64,000 nucleotides of DNA from Kiritimatiellia bacterium (GCA_017481725.1 JAFUOX010000022.1:4668-68667), one strand, 5' to 3'; shown: positions 2,707-64,000, numbered from the stretch's first letter. Translations and numbers: made by a program. The notes: a model not told the origin generated them from the sequence alone.

Positions 2707-3363
2707 GTGGTTAGATTTATGGATAGAATAAATTTTGATTATAAAAATAAGACTGTTATTGTTGCAGACGGAGATTTCCCATGCACAGAGCTTCCATTGA
2801 ATTGTTTGAAGGAAGCTGCTCACATTGTTGCGTGTGATGGTGCAGCTAATCAGCTTCTTGCACACGGAATTATGCCTGACTGGATTGTCGGTGATTTGGA
2901 TAGCCTTCCTTCTGTTATTAAAGAAAAGCTCCCAGAGCGAATTGTTCATATCAAAGAGCAGGAGAGTAATGACCTCTCAAAGGCATTCCGCTTTACCCAG
3001 GAAAAGGGCTGGAACGAGCTTATTATTCTAGGTGCAACAGGCAAGCGCGAGGATCATACACTAGGTAACCTTGCCCTTTTAAGTGAATTTGCTAATACCG
3101 CGAAATCTGTTTTTATGGTTACCGATTATGGCTGTTTTGTTGCAATTAGAGGAACAACTTGTTTCCCATCATATCCTGGAGAGCAAATATCAATTTTTGC
3201 CATTACCAGTGGTGTGAGAGTTTGTTCAACAGGACTTAAATATCCATTAAAAAATTTGCAGCTAAATTCTTGGTGGCAGGCTACTTTAAATGAAGCGTTA
3301 GGAGAAGAATTTATCCTTTCCTTCCCAGCAGGGGCTGAGCTATTAGTATTTCTAGCAAAGTAA
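2707..3363 (+). CDS. thiamine diphosphokinase
   Basis: VACDGAAN, IVGDLDS and ILGATGKREDHTLGNL match the TPK catalytic domain. The track start is GTG 2707; ATG 2719 is an alternative. Confidence 0.8.
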   Translation: MVRFMDRINFDYKNKTVIVADGDFPCTELPLNCLKEAAHIVACDGAANQLLAHGIMPDWIVGDLDSLPSVIKEKLPERIVHIKEQESNDLSKAFRFTQEKGWNELIILGATGKREDHTLGNLALLSEFANTAKSVFMVTDYGCFVAIRGTTCFPSYPGEQISIFAITSGVRVCSTGLKYPLKNLQLNSWWQATLNEALGEEFILSFPAGAELLVFLAK

Positions 3364-3377
3364 TAATAGGTGACTTT

Positions 3378-4319
3378 ATGAAATTAGTATGCTATTTACA
3401 GATTCCTTCTCTTGAGGACTTATGCTTGTCAGAGCAGATAGCAAATCAGTTTAGAGCTTTAAGACCAGATGTTGAGCTTGTAAATTGCGTGACTGAGGCA
3501 GAATTTGTTGAAAGCTTGCCTGATGCAGATGCTGTGTCTGTATGGGTATTTAAGCAGGAGTGGTTTGCATTAGCTCCTAAGCTGAAGCTCCTTTGCACTC
3601 CTGCTGCGGGGCGTGACTATTTTTCTGTTGTATCACCTGCTGGTGTTCAACTAAAATATGGAAGCTTCCATGGTCCAATTATGGCTGAAACTGTTCTTGG
3701 TATGGTGATTGGAATGAGTCATAGGCTATTGCAAAATGCGACAGCAATGCGAGTGTCTGAAAATGGCTATGAGGCAAAGTCTTGGCCACGCGATGCTTTT
3801 TCAGGTCAGGCAACACGTTGCTATGGTAAGCATGCAGTGATACTTGGCTTTGGCTCTATTGGAAGTGAGGTGGGTCGCATGCTCAAAGGCATCGGCTGCA
3901 GAATTACAGGTGTTAAGCGTAATATTGATGCAAAACCGTCGTGGTTTGATGAAGAGGATAGGCTTGTAACGCTTGATGCGCTTTCTCCATTACTACCAAG
4001 TGTAGATCATGTTATTTGTGTGCTTCCTTCAGATACAGGTGCTATTCATGTAATCAATAAGGAATTTTTAGAGCAGCTTCCTCCTACTGCATTTGTTTAT
4101 AATGTCGGCAGAGGCGTTAGTATTGATGAAGCAGCTCTTGCAGAAGCACTAAATGCAGGAAAAATAGCAGGAGCAGTACTAGATGTCTTTGAAAAAGAAC
4201 CCCTATCAGTAGATTCTCCATTGCGAGCAGCTAAAAATTGCTACCTTTATCCTCATGTTTCAGCGGTTTCTCCAGATTACCTATCACTATATTTTGCTGA
4301 TTTAGCAAAGGAGCTATAG
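3378..4319 (+). CDS. D-isomer-specific 2-hydroxyacid dehydrogenase family protein
   Basis: NAD loop GFGSIGSEVGRML, plus NVGRG, DVFEKEPL and PHVSA. Confidence 0.75.
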   Translation: MKLVCYLQIPSLEDLCLSEQIANQFRALRPDVELVNCVTEAEFVESLPDADAVSVWVFKQEWFALAPKLKLLCTPAAGRDYFSVVSPAGVQLKYGSFHGPIMAETVLGMVIGMSHRLLQNATAMRVSENGYEAKSWPRDAFSGQATRCYGKHAVILGFGSIGSEVGRMLKGIGCRITGVKRNIDAKPSWFDEEDRLVTLDALSPLLPSVDHVICVLPSDTGAIHVINKEFLEQLPPTAFVYNVGRGVSIDEAALAEALNAGKIAGAVLDVFEKEPLSVDSPLRAAKNCYLYPHVSAVSPDYLSLYFADLAKEL

Positions 4320-4322
4320 GAA

Positions 4323-5255
4323 ATGCAAAATATTAAACATAACATAAAGCTATCTCTTGTGGCGTTAAAAATATTTCTTCTTTCTGGCATGGCTATGGGA
4401 GGAGATAATTTTAAGTTTGTTGATAAAGCGGTGTGGGGTATCTTTAATGGCCCATTAGAGCTAAGTGGTATTTGTAATGTTTCATCCAATGAATATGCTT
4501 GTGTCTCGGATAGTGGTGGCAAGATTTATTCTTTTTTTATAGATGACACAAAACTGGATTCGCCAGATTATGTTCCGTTAGCGGAAAGCTTTAAATTGAT
4601 ACAAGAGGATGCTGGTTTTGATTTGGAGGGCTGTGTCTATGTAGATAATGCAATTTTTTCTATAGATGAGTCAAATTCTACAATAAAAGTACTATATCCT
4701 AGAGATGGGGCATTTGTTTCTGTCCCATTACATATTAGAAATTTTAAGCCGAATTGTGGTTTTGAGTCGTTGGCTTATTACCCAAGTAAAAAGCTTTTTG
4801 TTACTTGTACAGAGCAAGCAATGTATGGTGTGCCACCTCGACAAGTTAAGTTGATTTTCTTTACCATGGATATTAAAAAAAGAAAATGTAAAATAATGTA
4901 TGAAATCCCATATCTTATAGATGAATTTTATGGAATAAATGTTTATCGTAATGGTGTTTCTGATCTATATGTCTGGGATGAGACTACGTTACTTGTTGTT
5001 GAGCGGGCTACAGATTTGGATGGGCGCATTCCAAGCACAAGAATTCGTATATATGCAGTCAAATTGAACGATTTAGATAAGTCGTTTACCGACAATAGTT
5101 TGGAAAAACAATTAGTTTATGAATATGAATCAAAAATTGTGCCAGCAAATATTGAAGGAATTTGCCGTATCCCTAAAACAAATAAGCTTATTGCGGTTCA
5201 CGATTTACCTGGTTTATGTGTTGTTGGTCTTTTAGGTGTTGAAGCTACAGAGTAA
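4323..5255 (+). CDS. secreted phytase-like esterase family protein (weak assignment)
   Basis: Hydrophobic N-terminal signal-like segment. SDSGG, DLEG, GFESLA and NIEGI resemble the esterase-like-activity-of-phytase beta-propeller family. Confidence 0.45.
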   Translation: MQNIKHNIKLSLVALKIFLLSGMAMGGDNFKFVDKAVWGIFNGPLELSGICNVSSNEYACVSDSGGKIYSFFIDDTKLDSPDYVPLAESFKLIQEDAGFDLEGCVYVDNAIFSIDESNSTIKVLYPRDGAFVSVPLHIRNFKPNCGFESLAYYPSKKLFVTCTEQAMYGVPPRQVKLIFFTMDIKKRKCKIMYEIPYLIDEFYGINVYRNGVSDLYVWDETTLLVVERATDLDGRIPSTRIRIYAVKLNDLDKSFTDNSLEKQLVYEYESKIVPANIEGICRIPKTNKLIAVHDLPGLCVVGLLGVEATE

Positions 5256-5341
5256 AGGCATTTTTATAGTAATATTTTTGCTGCATAAAAGTAGTGTTTT
5301 ATCTTGTTATTGTTTATAGAAAAATGTAAAATATTGACATT

Positions 5342-5650
5342 ATGAATGATGATTTACAAATAGATTTAGATAAAGATTTTAATGAGCTTGCTGTTGCACT
5401 TTCAAAAATGTCAAGCCCAGCAGAAATCTCACAGTTTTTAAGCGAGATTTGTTCTCCTGCGGAATGTAGGTCAATTGCTTCTCGGTGGCAGTTGATGAAG
5501 TTGCTTGAGCAAGGAGAGACTCAGCGTGCTATTGCCAATAAGTTACACCTTAGTCTTTGCAAGATTACTCGTGGTGCAAAATATCTTAAGGATGAGAATT
5601 CTGTTCTCCGTAGGGAAGTACAAAAGGTTGCTTGTAAGAAGAAGAAGTAA
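5342..5650 (+). CDS. TrpR-related YerC/YecD-family DNA-binding protein
   Basis: 102 aa with HTH segment ETQRAIANKLHLSLCKITRGAKYL. Confidence 0.65.
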   Translation: MNDDLQIDLDKDFNELAVALSKMSSPAEISQFLSEICSPAECRSIASRWQLMKLLEQGETQRAIANKLHLSLCKITRGAKYLKDENSVLRREVQKVACKKKK

Positions 5651-5669
5651 CCACTAGGGGTTTTTATAA

Positions 5670-8600
5670 ATGAAAATTAAGTTTAATTTACAAGCCTTAA
5701 GACAAAAGCGTAGCCAAGCGTTTGGTTGGGTGAATGCAACACAATTTTTTGGTGCATTGAATGATAATATCTTTAAGGCGATGATAAAAATGTTTCTCAT
5801 TGCTATGCTTCCTAATTCTAGAGGAATAACATTAGCAATAGCAACTATCCTTTTCTCGATTCCTTATGTGTTTTTAACACCGTATGCCGGTTTTTTAGCA
5901 GACCGATTTAGTAAAAAGAAAATTACAGTTATTTTAAAGTATGCTGAGCTTCTAATAATGGTTTTGTCATGTATTGCATTTTTTATAGGCTCACGCTTTA
6001 TGCTCTTTACGTTGTTGTTTATGATGTCGGCTCAAAGTGCATTGTTTTCACCAACAAAATATGGAATATTGCCAGAACTAGTGTCTGAGGAAAAGCTTAC
6101 CCGTGCTAATGGGCTGCTTGTAATGATGTCTTTTATAGCAATAATTATAGGTACAGCTAGTGCACCAGCGTTGTCACTTGTTGCAAATAAATGGATTTCA
6201 AACCCACAATATGCTTATGGTTTAGCATCTATTGTTTGTGTTGTTATTGCTATTGCAGGAATACTTACTTCGCACCAAGTGTGGAAGACGCGCCCTGCAA
6301 ATCCAACGGTTACAAATGATCATTTTTTCTTGCGTAAACTTTGGAAAACCTTTAAATGGGTTAGAAAAGATAAAAACCTCTTGATTGCAATATTTGCAAC
6401 TGGTTTCTTCTCAATGCTAGCTGGGTTTATGCAAATCAATCTTATCCATTATGGAATGCATTGCTTGGAGCTTGATGAAAAGCAGAGTAGCTTTATGTTC
6501 TTTTTTGCTGCAGTTGGAATCGCATTCGGTGCATACTATGCTGGAAGATTATCAAAGCGTAATATTGAATTTGCTCTTATCCCAATAGGATCATTTTTGA
6601 TTTTAGTATCTCTATTGATAATTGGATTTATTACAAGCCCCAATTATTTGATTCTCGTTAGCATCTTGGTCTTTGTTGCTGGCTTAGGTGCTGGTTTCTT
6701 TATTGTGCCATTAGATACTTTTATTCAAATTACTTTGCCTTTGGAAAAACGTGGAGAGGGACTTGCTCTTAATTCATTTATTAGCTGGGTTGGCATATCT
6801 CTAGCTGGTCTTTTTATGTTTATATTTGATAAAATTTCCCTTCCTCCAAATGGTGGTTTCTTATTCTTTGTAATTCCAGCAGGTATTCTTTTTATTTTCG
6901 GTCAGCATTTTCTTAAGGATTTCTTTTTTAGATTTTGTGTTAATCTAATAGTGCGTTTGATTTATAAGGTTCGCACAATTGGTATAGAGAATGTGCCTAT
7001 TAATGGTCCTGCTGTGTTAATCGTTAACCACGCTTCATATATGGATTCCTTGCTGTTGTGTGCAACAACACGTAGAAGAATTCGCTTCCTTATGTCTCGA
7101 GATATTTATGAGCGTTGGCGTTGGTGTCGCCCATTTTTTAAGATGTATGGTGTTATTCCTGTTGATAATCGTTCATCACCACGTCAGGCTGCTATGGCAA
7201 TCCGAGAAGCTCGCAAGGCTCTTGATGATGGCTATATGGTATGTATCTTTGCTGAGGGTGGCATTACACGTACTGGTACAATAAGAGCATTTAAGAGTGG
7301 CTTTGCACGAATTTTACGCGGAACAGATTATCCTATTATTCCAATATATCTTGGTGGTTCATGGGGTACGATTTATCATTACTATCAAGGGCAGCTCGTT
7401 CGCAAGTGGTTTCGTTTGAGCCTAATGCGTTATCGCGTTACAGTTATGTTTGGCAAGCAATTACCTGCAACGACAGATGCATTCCATGTGCGCCGTGCGG
7501 TTATGGAGCTTTCCTGTGATTACTTTAATTCTCGTAAGGATGAACATAAATCATTGGGAAAGAGTTTTATTTCAGAAGCCCGCAGCAGCTGGTTTGCTCC
7601 TGCAGCAGATGATACTCTTGGCATGAAGGTTACCTATGGCAAGGCTCTTATTGCATCAGTTGCTCTTGCTAGGGCAATTTCTCCGAGAGTTCAGGATGAT
7701 AAGCATATTGGAATTTTGTTGCCAACAAGCTGTGCTGGTATGATTGCAAATATCTCAGCAGCACTACTTGGAAGAAGTGCTGTTAATTTGAACTTTACCA
7801 CCTCTAAGCAAGCTTTTGCTCATTCAATAGAGCAGTGTGGTATGCATGTGATTATCACAAGCCGCAAATTTGTTGAGCGCTTCCCTCAATACGAGATAAG
7901 TGAAGAGAAGCTTGTGTTTATAGAAGATGTTTTAAAGAATCTTACCACAAAAACAAAGCTTTCATGTGCCTTTGCAGCTGCGTTCTTGCCATTGAACATG
8001 ATGGTTCCAGCAACAGCAAAAACAGAAGCAGATGATGTGGCTATGATTCTATTCTCCTCTGGTTCCACAGGTGAACCTAAGGGTGTTATGCTTAGCCACC
8101 ACAATGTTCTCTCTATGATTGAGAGTCTTCGTATGATGCTTGCAACAACGCCTGATGACCACATTTGTGGTACATTGCCATTATTCCATTCCTTTGGTAT
8201 TATGGGTTGCATTTGGTATCCATTGCTAAAGCATGTACGTGTAACAATGCATCCAAATCCACTTGATGCTCAGGCTGTGGTTGACATTGTTCGTAATCAG
8301 AAATCAACGATGATTTTCGGTACTCCAACCTTTTTGTCTATTTATGCACGCAAAGCAACTCGTGAGGATTTCAAAACACTTCGCTTTATTCTTGCTGGTG
8401 CAGAGAAGCTTAAAGAGTCTCTCGTTAAACTGTATGAGGAAAGGTATGGTGTTCGCCCGTATGAGGCTTATGGAGCAACAGAGCTTTCTCCAGGCATCGC
8501 TGTGAGTGTTCCTCATGGCACTGGTGGTGGCATTGTTCAAGAAGGATGGAAAACTGGTCGTGTCGGACTTCCTTGCCCAGGTATTGCAATGAAGGTGCTT

Positions 8601-58444: not shown

Positions 58445-58785
58445 CGGATGAGTGGTGGTCGCTGACGCTCTAGCCTTCGGCGAAACACGGAGAAAAAAGA
58501 GGTAAGGAGGCACGGAGGGGTTGCTGGGGGTATTGTTCCTTGCACAATTCTTCCTTGTCCTCCGCAAAAATCACACTATGTGTGTCCGTGTTAGGCGAAA
58601 GCAATAAGTGCGAAGAAGGGACGCAGAGACGCAGAGGACGCAGGGCTTGCGTGGTGGCTTATATGGAGGTGTCGATAATAACACTACCGCTTGTTGTTTC
58701 CTTGGTTATTGCTCTATCTTTCAGAAGCAATAAGGAAACTGCCAAGCGCTAGTGTGTTCGACCACAATGAAGGCAGAGCCGCTAA
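58445..58785 (+). repeat. GC-rich mosaic repeat, locus 6
   Basis: Core CTCTAGCCTTCGGCGAAACACGGAG (58468-58492) and the same long-hairpin layout as locus 4. It also carries GGGACGCAGAGACGCAGAGGACGCAG and CCTTGGTTATTGC...GCAATAAGG...GCCAAGCGCTAGTGTG (58700-58756). Confidence 0.85.
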
Positions 58786-60039
58786 GCTGATGCACGTGGT
58801 GGTCATCATGATGCGGGCGACTATAATCCACGCTCACACCTTGACGTTGCTCAGGTTTTGCTAATGGCTTATGAGCTGGCACCACAGAAGTTCTATGATG
58901 GTCAGTTAAATATCCCTGAGAAGGCAAATGGTATTCCTGATATTGTAGATGAGGCTCTATGGGCAATTCGCATTTGGAATGGTTTGTATAATGATAAGGA
59001 TGGCTCAGTATATGAAGGTACAGAATCTGATGGTGATCCTAACTTTATTCAATCAGTAGAGCTAGATCCTAAGGGTGACTTTGCTTGGGCTAAGACATCA
59101 CGTGCAGCACTAAATTATGCTGCTGTGATGGCACGTACTGCTCGCATCCTAAAGACTTGCAAGATTACTCAGCAGCCAACGTATGAGTCAGAAGAGGAAG
59201 CTGCATTACAACCAAAGCTAAGCGCAGATGCTTATCTTGCTCGTGCAAGAAAGGCATTTGAGTGGGGTGTAGCAAATCCTCCAAAGGGTCTTAAGAAGTC
59301 TGCTCAATATGCTCAGCAGCATGTTACATGTCTTGCTTATGCAGCAGCAGAGTTATATCGCACAACAGGTGAGAAGAAATATCATGATGCATTTAAGGCA
59401 AATGTTCCTTGGGGTACAAAGACAAATGTATCTCTAGCTGTTGATAATACATGGGATTTGTCTTGGGCTGCTTATGCATACGCATTTTTGCCAGATAATA
59501 TGGCTGACCCTGTATACAAGGAGCAGGCAATTGCTTCAATCAAGAAGGAAGCAGATATGTATTTGGTTGGTTCTGGTCGTATGGCATACAAGTTTGTTCG
59601 TCATTCCTTTGCTCCTATCTCATGGGGTACAGGTGCATACCAGAATTTCTGCTTGCCAATTATGGCAATGTGGGGCTTAACAAAAGACCAGTATTATTAT
59701 GATTGGTTGATCAGAACCTGCGATAATACATTGGGAGCAAATCCAATGTGTCTGTCTTGGGTTATTGGTATTGGTGAGCGTACTGTTCATGCTCCATTGC
59801 ACAACAGCCGTTATAGTCCATTTGGTAAACCAGTTAATGGTCAGCAGGTTGAAGGTCCTTACATGAATGTAGGTGGCTACAATGTTCCTGAGACTATGTA
59901 CCCACGTCCATCAAGAAGCAATGCAATTATGTATCAATTCGTAGATGCTCACTTTGCAATTGCTATGGATGAGGGTGTTGTAAACAATCAGTCTAAGACT
60001 ATGGCTGTATTTGGCCTGCTACTTCCTGATAAGAAATAA
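58786..60039 (+). pseudogene. 5'-truncated GH9 glycoside hydrolase
   Basis: The frame opens at 58786 straight out of the repeat and reads ADARGGHHDAGDYNPR (the GH9 GGWxDAGD motif), then DIVDEALWAIRIW. About 200 or more aa of a normal GH9 N-terminus are absent. The only in-frame starts are TTG 58858 and ATG 58864. Confidence 0.6.
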
Positions 60040-60787: not shown

Positions 60788-60910
60788 CAAGGCCAACTTA
60801 CAAGCGCTAGTGTGGGTGTAACCCATGTACTAGAAGTGCGAGGGTGCATTGCTTCCTTGGTCATTGCAAAATCTATCGAAGCAATAAGGTAACAGCCAAG
60901 CGCCTGTGTG
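60788..60910. repeat. GC-rich mosaic repeat, locus 8
   Basis: CAAGCGCTAGTGTG (60801-60814) and CCTTGGTCATTGC...GCAATAAGG...GCCAAGCGCCTGTGTG (60855-60910) match modules at 47989-48044 and 58700-58756. Confidence 0.8.
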
Positions 60911-61279
60911 TACAGCCCACCAAGGCTTTTGAGCATGGGGCTGGATGCAGAATACTTTGGTTTTTCGGGAGGATACCTAGATGCAGCAAGTGAGTTAGAA
61001 ATATAATTTTCTTGATTTATTTGTGCTATTTTGAGATATTTATTCATATCAATGGATACTATTATTGTGTTATATTATAATTCGTATAAAGCATTATTTT
61101 TACATAAATATAGAAAGCCATTGTTATTTACCTAAATTTTGGAAGTTTTATATATTCATAAGCTTTTAATATAAATGGTTTATCCAAGATTTCTTATTTA
61201 AGTGCTGAATTTTGGTTAAATATATTTAAGGCTTTTACGTGATATTGGAAATAATTTACACAACGAGAAACTACTTATT

Positions 61280-61564
61280 ATGACTTATCAACCAAATCCT
61301 ATAGATACATCAGATATCCAACTTGAGGAAGAAGTATCAAGTTTAATTGAAATAATGGCAAAAAATGTCCATGAAGTATGGGCAAAAGAACGTATAGAAC
61401 AAGGATGGTCATATGGAGAAAAACGAGATGATGTCAATAGGTTGCATCCTTGTTTACTTCCGTATGAAGAATTGCCAGAGTTTGAAAAGAAATTTGACCG
61501 TAATACAGCTATAGAGACATTGAAGCTTATAAAAAAAATTGGGTTTGAGATTAAAAAAAGGTAA
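61280..61564 (+). CDS. 94-aa stand-alone RyR-domain protein
   Basis: LIEIMAKNVHEVWAKERIEQGWSYGEKRDDVNRLHPCLLPYEELPEFEKKFDRNTAIETLKLIKKIGFEI follows the RyR (ryanodine-receptor repeat) domain consensus as I recall it. Confidence 0.75.
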   Translation: MTYQPNPIDTSDIQLEEEVSSLIEIMAKNVHEVWAKERIEQGWSYGEKRDDVNRLHPCLLPYEELPEFEKKFDRNTAIETLKLIKKIGFEIKKR

Positions 61565-61569
61565 ATAAA

Positions 61570-63735
61570 ATGAAATTTTCACAAATAAAGGATTTAGTTC
61601 TTATTAAGCCATTAAAAAAAATAAGGTATAACATTTTATTTCGTGAGTCTTTGCTTGTTTTCTTTTTTGTTGGCATTCCATTTGTTTTAAGCTTGTTTTG
61701 GTATCGACTGATTTTCCTGTCGTTGGCGTTTTTCTTTTTTTGCTTAATTATTACACTTTTACTATGCAATTTACCTATATGCCAAAAAGGATGGGTTAGA
61801 AATTGTTTATTCATTGGAATTTTCATGTGGGGGTGTTTTTCTTACATGAAACTTGATGAACTTGATAAATGCCCTAATACATCTTATTCATTCCTTCGCA
61901 CTAGTAATACTACGTTATCCGCATTTTTTCCGTCTCGTGGTACTTATAATTATAAAGATAGTGAAATAAATGCCCTCAATCAAGATAAAACAAAAGTAGC
62001 ATGGAGTTATTTCTGTTTTCATTCAGCAGCTTACATTTTTGTTGGTTATTTTATAATGTCTATATGGGGATATAAATCTATTAACAGACTATGGTTTTTT
62101 TTGACACGTGATAGTGAAAAAAATGTTTTTTGGTGTGTTAAGCCTGAAGCAAATATGCTTAAGCTAGCAAAAGATATTTTAGAAAATTCAGACGAATCCT
62201 CGCAGCCCGTTTTTTCTGTAGATGAAGTAGAATATGTTGATCAAAAGCAAATTTTTCAGGAAATGAATTATCAGAAAATTTGTCTAAAATTGAGAAAACC
62301 TAATCAAATTCATAAATATTGTCTTTCTGCAGCAAGGCATTTTTTCCTTTCTGAGAACACCGATTGGAATATTGATATGGCGCAAGCTTTATTAAATGCT
62401 CGCTCTACAATTAAAACACCAACGAAAATATATATTAGAATTAATAATGATGCTAGAAAGATATACTATACTCGTTGGGCTGAACAATATAATAAATCAG
62501 TTGTTGAAATTATTTTCATAGACGATTGTGCTTTAATAATTGATAAATTCATTCAACAGCATCATATTTTACAGTCATTTACAGAATGTATTGATCCAAA
62601 TACACTAACAGTAAACAAAGATAACGGATTCCGTTATTTGGTGATTGGATTTGGTGGATTAGGTCAGGAGGTTCTAAAACACTTAATATGTGACACTCAA
62701 TTTTTAGATTCCAACAATGAATTAGTCCCTTTGCAGATAGATATTATTGAAAATAATATAGAAAAAATTACTTTGTTCCAGAAACAGTATTCAGAGTTAT
62801 TAGAACGTTTTGATAAAATTCATTTCATTATGCATGAGGATAACAAGACACCAATTTCTGCAGGCACAATGGAATTTTATTCTTTTTTTGAAGATAATTA
62901 TACAAAATATGACAGAATAGTTGTTGCATTGGGCGAGACAATGTTAAGCATAGAAACGATTGCCCAAATGGAGGATATTATTAGAAAACAAACTGATCTT
63001 TTTACCGGAGATCCGTCTGTAGAATTAAAAAAATGGAAAGAAAAAATATTTTTGATTTCACCAAATATTTCAGGATATGTTTTTCAAAATAAGGATAATG
63101 TTTTCAGCGTTTTTGGTGCGGACAATGAGATTTATAACTATTCAGATATAGTCAATGAGAAAATATTTTATTTAGCAAAACTAATAAATTATCGTCATAA
63201 TACAGGATGTGTTGTTACGCTCGAAAACCTAGAAGAGAAAAAAGACGATTTAAACAAGGAATGGAGAAACGCTGATTTTTATTGCCGTCAGAGTTCTTAT
63301 GCTTCTGCCCTGGGACTAGATAATGTTAGACTGTTGGTAGAGAATTATTCAAATAGAGAACTATTTGTGGGTGAAAATAGTATGTTTTTGCCAGAAAAAT
63401 ATACGTCTTGGATTAAATCTAAGGAGAAAGATATTATTGATTTGAGAGATAACTTGGGTAAAATGGAGCATTCCAGATGGTGGGCATTTATGCTTTGCTG
63501 TGGATATGTTTCTTGGAAAAAACCTATCAAAAGAGAAGGTGTGACAGAAAAAGCAAATATGACAGTAAAATATGGCCGTCATGCTACGATGATTGAATGG
63601 GAAAAAATGCCGGAAATAGACATTGTTTTCCCTGATGTTAAGACTCATGAAACCGTTATGGATAAAGATTTACGAATTATTGATGCGCTACCTTATTTCT
63701 ATAACATTATGGAAGAAAGTAAGAATAGAATATAA
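61570..63735 (+). CDS. 4-TM membrane protein with Rossmann/RCK-like core and C-terminal RyR-like domain
   Basis: Starts 6 nt after the upstream stop. Four hydrophobic helices lie in aa 28-170. It has GxGxxG (YLVIGFGGLGQEV) and a C-terminal MEHSRWWAFMLCCGYVSW...GRHATMIEWEKMPE. Confidence 0.7.
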   Translation: MKFSQIKDLVLIKPLKKIRYNILFRESLLVFFFVGIPFVLSLFWYRLIFLSLAFFFFCLIITLLLCNLPICQKGWVRNCLFIGIFMWGCFSYMKLDELDKCPNTSYSFLRTSNTTLSAFFPSRGTYNYKDSEINALNQDKTKVAWSYFCFHSAAYIFVGYFIMSIWGYKSINRLWFFLTRDSEKNVFWCVKPEANMLKLAKDILENSDESSQPVFSVDEVEYVDQKQIFQEMNYQKICLKLRKPNQIHKYCLSAARHFFLSENTDWNIDMAQALLNARSTIKTPTKIYIRINNDARKIYYTRWAEQYNKSVVEIIFIDDCALIIDKFIQQHHILQSFTECIDPNTLTVNKDNGFRYLVIGFGGLGQEVLKHLICDTQFLDSNNELVPLQIDIIENNIEKITLFQKQYSELLERFDKIHFIMHEDNKTPISAGTMEFYSFFEDNYTKYDRIVVALGETMLSIETIAQMEDIIRKQTDLFTGDPSVELKKWKEKIFLISPNISGYVFQNKDNVFSVFGADNEIYNYSDIVNEKIFYLAKLINYRHNTGCVVTLENLEEKKDDLNKEWRNADFYCRQSSYASALGLDNVRLLVENYSNRELFVGENSMFLPEKYTSWIKSKEKDIIDLRDNLGKMEHSRWWAFMLCCGYVSWKKPIKREGVTEKANMTVKYGRHATMIEWEKMPEIDIVFPDVKTHETVMDKDLRIIDALPYFYNIMEESKNRI

Positions 63736-63859
63736 TTTTAATGTAAAAATAAAATTAAATCTACAACAAGCAGATTATATTAAATTTGTTTCTTAATTTA
63801 ATTAGTCCGTTTTATGGTAAAAGTGATATTTGTGTTTGTTATAAATGAAGGAAATAGAT

Positions 63860-64000
63860 ATGCTAAAGTCTATAAATAATAAAGATGATAAAACAAAAGC
63901 TTTTAAATATTATGCATTTATTAGTTATTCACGAAAGAATTCGAAAGCAGCGTCTTATTTACATAAGCAGTTGGAACACTTCCGTGTGCCGGTTCGGTAT
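63860..64000 (+). CDS. TIR-domain protein, N-terminal 47 codons (3' end lies outside the window)
   Basis: Starts at ATG 63860. The translation MLKSINNKDDKTKAFKYYAFISYSRKNSKAASYLHKQLEHFRVPVRY contains FISYSxK...LxxxL, the usual first strand and helix of bacterial TIR domains. Confidence 0.5.
   Translation, partial: MLKSINNKDDKTKAFKYYAFISYSRKNSKAASYLHKQLEHFRVPVRY

Follow-up and report, generated by a model that had tools for sequence, protein, structure and literature searches.

A ryanodine-receptor-domain gene pair next to a TIR gene in a Kiritimatiellia bacterium: a candidate Thoeris-like signalling module

The locus

The 3' end of a 64,000-nt stretch of DNA from a Kiritimatiellia bacterium (GCA_017481725.1, JAFUOX010000022.1:4668-68667), referred to below as the window, holds three open reading frames (ORFs) on the + strand, at 61280-61564, 61570-63735 and from 63860 onwards. 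Gene 1 encodes a free ryanodine-receptor (RyR) domain, gene 2 a membrane protein with RCK-like domains and a RyR-like C-terminus, and gene 3 a TIR protein that continues past the window. Together, the three genes probably form a Thoeris-like, TIR-based nucleotide-signalling module, whose role would most likely be anti-phage defence by abortive infection. The identities of the domains, the conservation of the ligand-contacting residues and the recurrence of the triad are established here. The locus had been singled out in an earlier reading of the window (hereafter the original prediction), whose coordinates, spacings, motifs and G+C counts of two 60-nt lines (16 and 25) were all verified in the sequence.

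The free RyR protein

Gene 1 (61280-61564) encodes a stand-alone, single-repeat RyR protein of the R12 type with 94 amino acids (aa). As originally predicted, it consists of one RyR domain and nothing else: the match to Pfam RyR (PF02026, E=4.4e-36, 123.4 bits with a cut-off of 27.4) covers profile positions 1-91 of 91. Its matches in the PDB are the Bacteroides thetaiotaomicron 'putative ryanodine receptor' 3NRT (E=2e-36) and Repeat12 of the animal receptors RyR1-3, with which it aligns end to end (single-repeat E about 1e-18). Over 2500 relatives share about 70% identity with the small RyR protein, and free RyR domains are found in 256 phage records (tblastn).

Phage RyR-domain proteins bind or cleave the Thoeris signals 2'/3' cyclic ADP-ribose (cADPR), as described in two preprints of May and June 2026 (PMC13232231; doi 10.64898/2026.06.04.730250). 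One of these proteins, RyDEP, is gp78 of mycobacteriophage DyoEdafos, with a pocket formed by H75, W78, H100 and D117 (Lopez Rivera et al., PMC13232231). Other phage homologues are sponges, which bind these signals with nanomolar affinity (PMC13232231). The crystal structure of gp68 from Pectobacterium phage CB1 ('RyR Tad') with 1''-3' gcADPR involves the residues H129/W132, K147/H154 and K170/D171 (doi 10.64898/2026.06.04.730250). The same pocket residues in RyR3 bind adenine nucleotides and dantrolene (cited in PMC13232231).

By direct alignment, H31, W34, R49, H56 and D73 of gene 1 correspond to H129, W132, K147, H154 and D171 of gp68, to which gene 1 is 35% identical over the aligned part. 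All five residues are invariant across 8 operon-linked small RyR orthologues, and the pocket spacing (3, 22, 17) is identical to that of RyDEP. The sensing of cADPR isomers by RyR domains, as put forward in the original prediction, has gained independent support from experiments on the phage homologues, and the binding residues concerned are kept in genes 1 and 2. The H/D dyad is kept in phage proteins of both kinds, and a glycosidase role and a sponge role of gene 1 are indistinguishable from sequence.

The membrane protein

The start codon of gene 2 (61570-63735) is an ATG at 61570, 5 nt past the stop of gene 1. The gene encodes a 721-aa membrane protein, the proposed signal-gated effector, with four transmembrane (TM) helices, two RCK-like Rossmann domains and a RyR-like C-terminus. 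It contains YLVIGFGGLGQEV and has no family match in Pfam, PADLOC or NCBIfam. Its AlphaFold model reached a pLDDT (predicted local distance difference test) of 72.6 and a pTM (predicted TM-score) of 0.73.

The four N-terminal TM helices of the original prediction were returned by a hydropathy scan and two AlphaFold models, at about aa 22-40, 43-67, 74-99 and 138-165. The N-terminus is positively charged and therefore probably cytoplasmic. The membrane domain (aa 1-185; 61570-62124) is made up of TM1-TM3, a short helix, a conserved loop and TM4; modelled alone, it reached a pLDDT of 81, with helices at 13-40, 46-72, 74-97, 104-118 and 140-178. The loop between the short helix and TM4 carries the motif FFPSRG (aa 119-124; 61924-61941) as part of FFPSRG-x-Y. 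FFPSRG is invariant in 14 close homologues, 16 remote ones and 26 N-terminal segments, and it is present in 49 of the 59 remote homologues checked. The order of TM3, short helix, invariant loop and TM4 fits the topology of pore-loop channels, without a canonical filter, and FFPSRG may serve as a pore-loop or filter element. Foldseek searches with the isolated membrane domain gave no significant match (all E > 3); 11 of the 17 weak matches were pore-loop cation channels (K2P, CNG, Kir, GluA), which is no more than a hint. Gene 2 is therefore termed channel-like and not a channel.

Two cytoplasmic Rossmann-type domains follow, both modelled with a pLDDT of 80-93. The first RCK-like alpha/beta domain (aa 184-330; 62119-62559) consists of alternating strands and helices. 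The second (aa 354-520; 62629-63129) has a GxGxxG motif at G360-G365 (62647-62664) and an aspartate, D391, after strand 2. Among the 59 remote homologues, G360 is invariant and G365 at least 90% conserved, and D391 is invariant in the close family. The Rossmann/RCK-like core of the original prediction found support at the level of the fold. In Foldseek searches of the PDB with gene 2, the top match was the TrkA gating ring 4j9v (E=1.2e-5, probability 1.00, TM-score only 0.41), followed by GsuK 4gx0 and BK/Slo1 channels with TM-scores of about 0.4. The structural alignment to the TrkA tandem RCK ring extends over roughly 415 columns. Neither Pfam TrkA_N nor Ion_trans_2 was found at threshold in gene 2, and one of its 59 relatives reaches TrkA_N at E=1e-3.

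The C-terminal domain (aa 612-715; 63403-63714), with the pattern EH634xRW637 ... RH671 ... D700, is modelled with low confidence by AlphaFold. Judged by profile comparison, it is homologous to RyR. A profile of 30 gene 2 C-termini was aligned by hhalign to the operon-linked small RyR proteins with a probability of 96.6% (E=6.5e-10); an earlier comparison with 11 sequences was weak (56% probability), and the match became convincing only with the 30 remote sequences. When the profile was searched against the PDB, the first ten matches were all ryanodine-receptor or bacterial 'putative ryanodine receptor' entries, of which only 6uhi was significant (E=5e-6). Moreover, a hidden Markov model (HMM) built from the small RyR proteins matches the C-termini of many gene 2 relatives directly. 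Across the 59 remote homologues, H634, W637 and H671 do not vary, and the conservation of D700 is at least 90%. The second RyR-like module of the original prediction is real but diverged: it stays below the Pfam PF02026 threshold, and one of the 59 relatives reaches E=5e-3. In PDB sequence searches with the whole gene 2 family profile and with a 682-aa B. thetaiotaomicron relative described below, only RyR entries were found.

The TIR protein

Gene 3 starts with an ATG at 63860, 124 nt after gene 2, and its 5' end (63860-64000) lies in the window. The 46 aa encoded there are too short for a family match and gave only noise matches (DnaG_helical, BrxC), which were discarded. The gene was therefore followed on the window's own contig (L098, ENA k141_164785, 70,002 bp), 1.2 kb past the window, where 449 aa are readable (L098 12581-13927). 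The TIR domain spans aa 20-132 and matches TIR_2 (E=5.8e-12) and ThsB_TIR (E=3e-7, 31.1 bits with a cut-off of 21.2). It is followed by a hydrophobic helix from aa 203, a coiled coil and TPR_10/TPR_12 repeats, giving a TIR-TM-TPR protein. The stretch SIWVNEE (from aa 102) lines up with WCLDEL/WCLEEL in two plant TIRs (AtTIR, ROQ1), and this alignment assigns the catalytic glutamate of gene 3. The column of this residue is at least 90% conserved in 39 neighbouring TIRs. On the source contig, the third gene thus has both a TIR domain and the catalytic glutamate on which the original prediction had been staked beforehand.

An orthologous locus (L016) is found in another Kiritimatiellia metagenome-assembled genome (MAG) at 92% identity. 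Its TIR protein has about 930 aa and about ten TPR_12 units. The L016 gene is frameshifted at about 4185-4221 (ORFs 3292-4221 and 4188-6092), where the window's contig reads through; the frameshift is either an assembly error or a sign of a pseudogene in that MAG.

Recurrence of the gene triad

Close relatives of gene 2 are rare and form 14 clusters among 5.8 billion proteins. Every close-family context with enough flanking sequence was examined, i.e., 8 distinct contexts with 26-92% identity from Kiritimatiellia, Lentisphaeria and metagenome contigs. In all eight, a RyR-domain gene adjoins gene 2, and at least one TIR gene lies in the same gene run. The RyR gene encodes 94-99 aa in seven contexts and a 624-aa fusion in the P0005 loci. 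The gene order varies between RyR-X-TIR, RyR-TIR-X and TIR-RyR-X, where X is gene 2; an overlap of a few bases between gene 2 and the TIR gene is common. The tight coupling of the RyR gene to gene 2 and these overlaps point to a single pathway leading from TIR to RyR. The window contains no other RyR or TIR ORF and the triad recurs in unrelated contigs; hence, a grouping by chance is unlikely.

The gene 2 superfamily is much larger: a profile search returned 2483 representatives at E<=1e-3 and 223 at E<=1e-30, which are unannotated and in which FFPSRG is almost universal. Eighty remote metagenome loci, found with a seed from a different subfamily (a 16-sequence subset of the 59-sequence alignment), were scanned with in-house HMMs. 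A separate RyR ORF, mostly of about 94 aa and immediately downstream, lies within 5 kb in 22 of them, TIR ORFs lie within 5 kb in 29, and 40 have one or both. Thirty of the remote loci have no less than 2.5 kb of sequence to either side, and in 16 of these a separate RyR gene, a TIR gene or both lie within 5 kb. The density of TIR ORFs across the 80 loci is 12.3 per 100 kb within 3 kb and 1.7 beyond, an about 7-fold difference, and 37 of the 38 nearby TIR ORFs are co-directional. A Pfam check of the neighbouring TIRs assigned 37 of 39 to TIR_2.

The reverse search started from three small-RyR homologues picked at random (one from an Alistipes MAG and two others). All three adjoin a gene for a gene-2-like protein of 660-750 aa, and TIR genes lie in the same run for two of them. 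At the third, a TIR_2 gene is located about 6 kb upstream and the gene just upstream has a partial TIR-HMM match. One of the three loci is part of an island that also carries SIR2-TIR, nSTAND1-LRR and AAA_15 genes. The adjacency of RyR and TIR genes, whose recurrence the original prediction had named as decisive, therefore recurs in the close contexts, at the randomly chosen homologues and among the 80 remote loci. A search of 2.9 million viral contigs found no member of the gene 2 family, whereas free RyR domains do occur in phage, which argues for a host-side family.

The non-TIR parts of the partner TIR proteins are hypervariable and include TPR, Sel1, LRR, FGE-sulfatase, WG repeats, SIR2 and Macro. 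About half of the TIR proteins beside gene 2 homologues (31/59) have an N-terminal TIR domain, a single hydrophobic helix and a variable C-terminal domain. In these proteins, the C-terminal domain would lie outside the cytoplasm, a layout in the style of Toll-like receptors. It is seen in L098 12581-13927 and in the loci L007, L012, L017, L027, L036, L067, L084, L087, L090 and L097, among others.

Several variants of the locus were observed. Compact triads are seen in L015 (RyR of 95 aa, a 738-aa protein and a TIR of 215 aa) and in L101 (TIR of 331 aa, a 747-aa protein and RyR of 96 aa). At L105 7451-8707 (also in L106 and L107), a 418-aa protein encoded directly downstream of the small RyR gene has a weak match to a PARP catalytic domain (E=5e-5, below the Pfam cut-off). 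A PARP-like, NAD+-using enzyme would thus occupy the usual place of the TIR gene; an upstream 377-aa gene at this locus matches the TIR HMM in part. Fusions of canonical RyR domains to other modules were also seen (L002 6124-7998, L023 4321-6522, L100 808-1926, L063 9925-10698). Examples include a 530-aa N-terminal region with a weak LmuA/DUF4297 match, two RyR repeats with AAA, and a Zn-ribbon; an apparent RyR-nitroreductase fusion may be an artefact of ORF merging. Mbeg1-like domains are attached to six of the 59 remote gene 2 homologues; Lipase_3, alpha/beta-hydrolase or HD domains are found on others. In L062, L071, L082, L083, L096 and L097, a second, shorter TM+RyR paralogue stands in tandem and replaces the mini-RyR gene. 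Furthermore, genes for Peptidase_M48 and a Zn-ribbon protein (with AAA in L002-L005) lie upstream of the TIR-RyR-gene 2 run at two unrelated loci (L002 676-4898; L099-L101) and could be additional components.

Related pairs without a TIR gene

In B. thetaiotaomicron (CP103155.1, L112 9001-11355), the gene of the crystallised RyR protein (3NRT) is followed 4 nt later by the gene for an unannotated 682-aa protein, to which it is translationally coupled. The latter protein combines two TM helices with an RCK-like core and a RyR-like C-terminus of the EHNRW type, and the gene 2 HMM matches it at E=9e-15. The small RyR protein is found in over 21,000 blocks of the assembly collection. With the small partner already crystallised, this pair is a possible tractable model for the RyR pair. 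In addition, a 'solo' gene 2 subfamily (L037-L050, L058, L064) has a more canonical RyR C-terminus and neither a TIR gene nor a free RyR gene nearby.

Genomic setting

The RyR locus is the most AT-rich part of the window, as the original prediction had stated. The GC content is 29.7% at 61048-64000 and 39.1% in the remaining window, and none of the 117 other sliding 3-kb windows reaches a value as low. Genes 1 and 2 have a GC content of about 31-33%, while that of gene 3 (38.9%) is genome-like. A weak 36-nt inverted repeat (72% complementary; 61094-61129 and 63717-63752) brackets exactly genes 1 and 2. This may mean that the RyR pair came in as a cassette, or it may be due to chance in AT-rich DNA.

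Upstream of gene 1 lies an AT-rich intergenic leader without a + strand ORF (61048-61279), the presumed promoter region. The leader has sigma-70-like hexamers (61053-61081 and 61127-61156), but these occur no more often than after shuffling and do not demonstrate a promoter; likewise, a promoter and terminator scan of the locus gave nothing that exceeds the shuffled expectation. The genes further upstream comprise the housekeeping genes cysS, ispF and murJ as well as glycoside-hydrolase genes. A direct repeat (58724-58757 and 60878-60911; 34 nt, 88% identity), with a 20-nt partial copy at 60795-60814, flanks two features that precede the RyR locus, a GH9 gene (58858-60039) and an ORF of 100 aa. 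This is probably the 'mosaic repeat' of the original prediction.

Proposed function and alternative explanations

In the proposed mechanism, gene 3 would be a membrane-anchored TIR protein whose variable non-TIR part, here the TPR repeats, acts as the sensor. Once triggered, its TIR domain would convert NAD+ to an ADP-ribose (ADPR)-derived signal, e.g., a cADPR isomer. This signal would bind the RyR-type pocket in the C-terminus of gene 2 and perhaps the GxGxxG Rossmann site as well. The tandem RCK-like ring would then relay the binding to the four-helix membrane domain, which would open or disrupt the membrane and dissipate ion gradients. As for gene 1, two roles may be considered. It might sequester or hydrolyse the signal and so provide an activation threshold and an off-switch, or it might pair with the single RyR-like repeat of gene 2 to form a two-repeat, R12-like module. 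Such a pairing is plausible because single-repeat RyR proteins of bacteria and phages are homodimeric and animal R12 is a tandem repeat. We infer the direction of signalling, the ligand, the pore function, the role of gene 1 and the defence phenotype; ligand binding has been shown for the phage homologues only.

A bolder version of this mechanism is offered as a speculative proposal with a fairly low chance of being right in full. In this version, a cADPR-type messenger made by a receptor-like, host-encoded TIR enzyme would directly gate an RCK-ring channel via the R12-type pocket, and the mini-RyR would be either the second half of the pocket or a signal glycosidase that serves as an off-switch. 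The system would then represent a prokaryotic prototype of cADPR-to-RyR signalling and the source of the animal RyR repeats.

Several observations weigh against a Thoeris-like defence module. The membrane domain of gene 2 has neither a significant structural match nor the filter sequence of K+ channels (no TVGYG), and the RyR-like C-terminus is poorly modelled by AlphaFold. Gene 3 is split from gene 2 by the 124-nt gap and has, unlike genes 1 and 2, a normal GC content. The RyR domains of animal channels also bind ATP/ADP (PMC13232231; doi 10.64898/2026.06.04.730250), so the ligand of the domains described here need not be a TIR product. PADLOC (2023, PADLOC-DB v2) recognises the TIR proteins only and has no match for genes 1 and 2. 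Since both genes lie outside the described Thoeris effector families (ThsA SIR2-SLOG, Macro-TM, etc.), this last point indicates a new type and is not evidence against a Thoeris-like mechanism. Finally, the widely carried B. thetaiotaomicron pair lies in a housekeeping context, with frr, rsgA and an EamA transporter gene as neighbours and no TIR gene within 9 kb, and the solo subfamily adjoins radical-SAM, SecDF and cation-efflux genes in bioreactor metagenomes. Together, the pair without a TIR gene and the solo subfamily suggest that the superfamily may be a general class of nucleotide-gated membrane proteins, which have repeatedly been coupled to TIR enzymes.

The same contexts would suit a physiological pathway outside immunity. 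A receptor-like TIR protein would sense an envelope or extracellular cue with its outward-facing repeats, an NAD-derived messenger would gate the gene 2 channel, and gene 1 would buffer the messenger. The system would then be a bacterial counterpart of cADPR-to-RyR calcium signalling, serving homeostasis or behaviour and not abortive infection. Besides the housekeeping neighbours of the B. thetaiotaomicron pair and the neighbours of the solo homologues, the cysS, ispF, murJ and glycoside-hydrolase genes upstream of the locus in the window are in line with this idea. So are the 31 partner TIRs with a TIR-TM arrangement, whose C-terminal domain is of a kind that is often extracytoplasmic. Nonetheless, the hypervariable TIR partners, the presence of several TIR paralogues per locus and the SIR2-TIR, nSTAND and AAA_15 neighbours are traits of conflict systems. 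The lipase or HD fusions of some gene 2 homologues and the atypically low GC content of the locus also count against it, and a non-immune pathway is considered unlikely, if worth keeping in mind.

Rather less probable still is that the TIR protein itself is the effector. As in TIR-SAVED, SPARTA and Avs, it would deplete NAD+, while the RyR pair would be an accessory that reads ADPR/cADPR or membrane or ionic stress and regulates the TIR. NADase effectors are common among bacterial TIRs, according to Yirmiya et al. (2025). The TIR proteins described here are large and have their own sensor-like repeats, with which they could act alone, and at one locus a PARP-like gene replaces the TIR gene beside the RyR pair. 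However, downstream effectors are typically laid out as gene 2 is, as a membrane protein with two nucleotide-binding modules. A single pathway in which the TIR product is read by RyR is suggested by the close link between the RyR gene and gene 2 and by how often gene 2 overlaps the TIR gene, and the phage RyR proteins act on TIR signals and not on NAD+ (PMC13232231).

Free RyR proteins are phage anti-Thoeris factors (PMC13232231; doi 10.64898/2026.06.04.730250) with numerous phage records, but it is hardly credible that gene 1 is such a sponge from a mobile element or prophage in a chance neighbourhood, as the locus has no phage genes, gene 1 is translationally coupled to gene 2, the pairing is kept in every context examined, gene 2 has its own RyR-like domain and viral contigs lack its family. 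The context thus led to the rejection of a prophage anti-defence gene, and the recurrence data contradict a chance neighbourhood.

Significance

The phage reports of mid-2026 left open the role of thousands of bacterial RyR-domain genes, and the locus described here suggests an answer. The RyR pocket would be the host receptor for TIR products, placed on a channel-like effector in many gut bacteria (Kiritimatiellia, Lentisphaeria, Alistipes and others). If this is true, the phage decoys were either copied from a host receptor domain or have converged on it. TIR immunity would gain a new sensor domain and a new effector class, and the locus would furnish the first candidate for a host-encoded regulator of cADPR-type signals. 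Moreover, the system could provide a simple bacterial model for the long-debated direct action of cADPR-type molecules on ryanodine-receptor repeats, a question that the known structure of the small B. thetaiotaomicron partner brings within reach of experiment. What makes the locus highly interesting is that it offers the host-side partner that the phage RyR decoys had lacked and ties TIR signalling to ryanodine-receptor repeats in a tractable setting.

Comparison with known systems

A recent survey (Yirmiya et al., bioRxiv, December 2025) catalogues 29 putative Thoeris types, of which types V-XI were validated. It lists membrane effectors in types II, V, VI, VII and X; the type X effector ThsK is termed an 'ion channel', and its signal is given as not known. 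In its text and the part of its tables that was searched, RyR, ryanodine and PF02026 are not mentioned as an effector. Full-text literature searches likewise returned no description of a RyR+TIR operon of a bacterial host. When the type X TIR sequences (Table S1) were used as queries, all plasmid matches were type II (Macro) systems.

The locus shares with Thoeris a TIR protein with a catalytic glutamate next to a protein that combines a small-molecule pocket with a membrane module of the killing type. The TIRs of the gene 3 kind also match the Pfam ThsB_TIR and PADLOC ThsB models. In contrast to Thoeris types I-XI, the sensor is RyR/R12 and not SLOG, Macro, caspase-associated, DUF2270, DUF6650 or SLATT. 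The core of the effector is a tandem RCK-like ring, and a free RyR gene is an additional, obligatory part. ThsB is small, whereas the TIRs described here are large, multi-domain and often membrane-anchored. As both the effector family and the sensor domain differ, the locus lies outside every described Thoeris type, though Thoeris-like in its working; this placement does not include a sequence comparison with ThsK of type X. By analogy only, gene 1 resembles the ring nucleases of type III CRISPR systems, since a small operon protein with the ligand pocket of the effector could reset or dampen signalling; in sequence and fold, the two are unrelated.

With RyDEP and RyR Tad, gene 1 has in common the PF02026 domain and the equally spaced ligand-contacting His, Trp, His and Asp, with K147 of RyR Tad replaced by Arg. 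The phage proteins are viral and counter host immunity, whereas gene 1, at low identity to them, is host-encoded and stands in an operon with a TIR protein and an effector.

Gene 2 resembles MthK, GsuK, TrkA/TrkH and BK/Slo1 in that its membrane domain precedes two RCK-like domains of the Rossmann type, the second of which has GxGxxG and an acidic residue. It differs from these channels by the invariant FFPSRG loop in place of a TVGYG-type filter and by the additional RyR-like C-terminus. Compared to R12 of animal RyR, which is a tandem repeat within a 5000-aa Ca2+ channel, the bacterial system has single repeats on two polypeptides, one of which is a 721-aa membrane protein of a different architecture.

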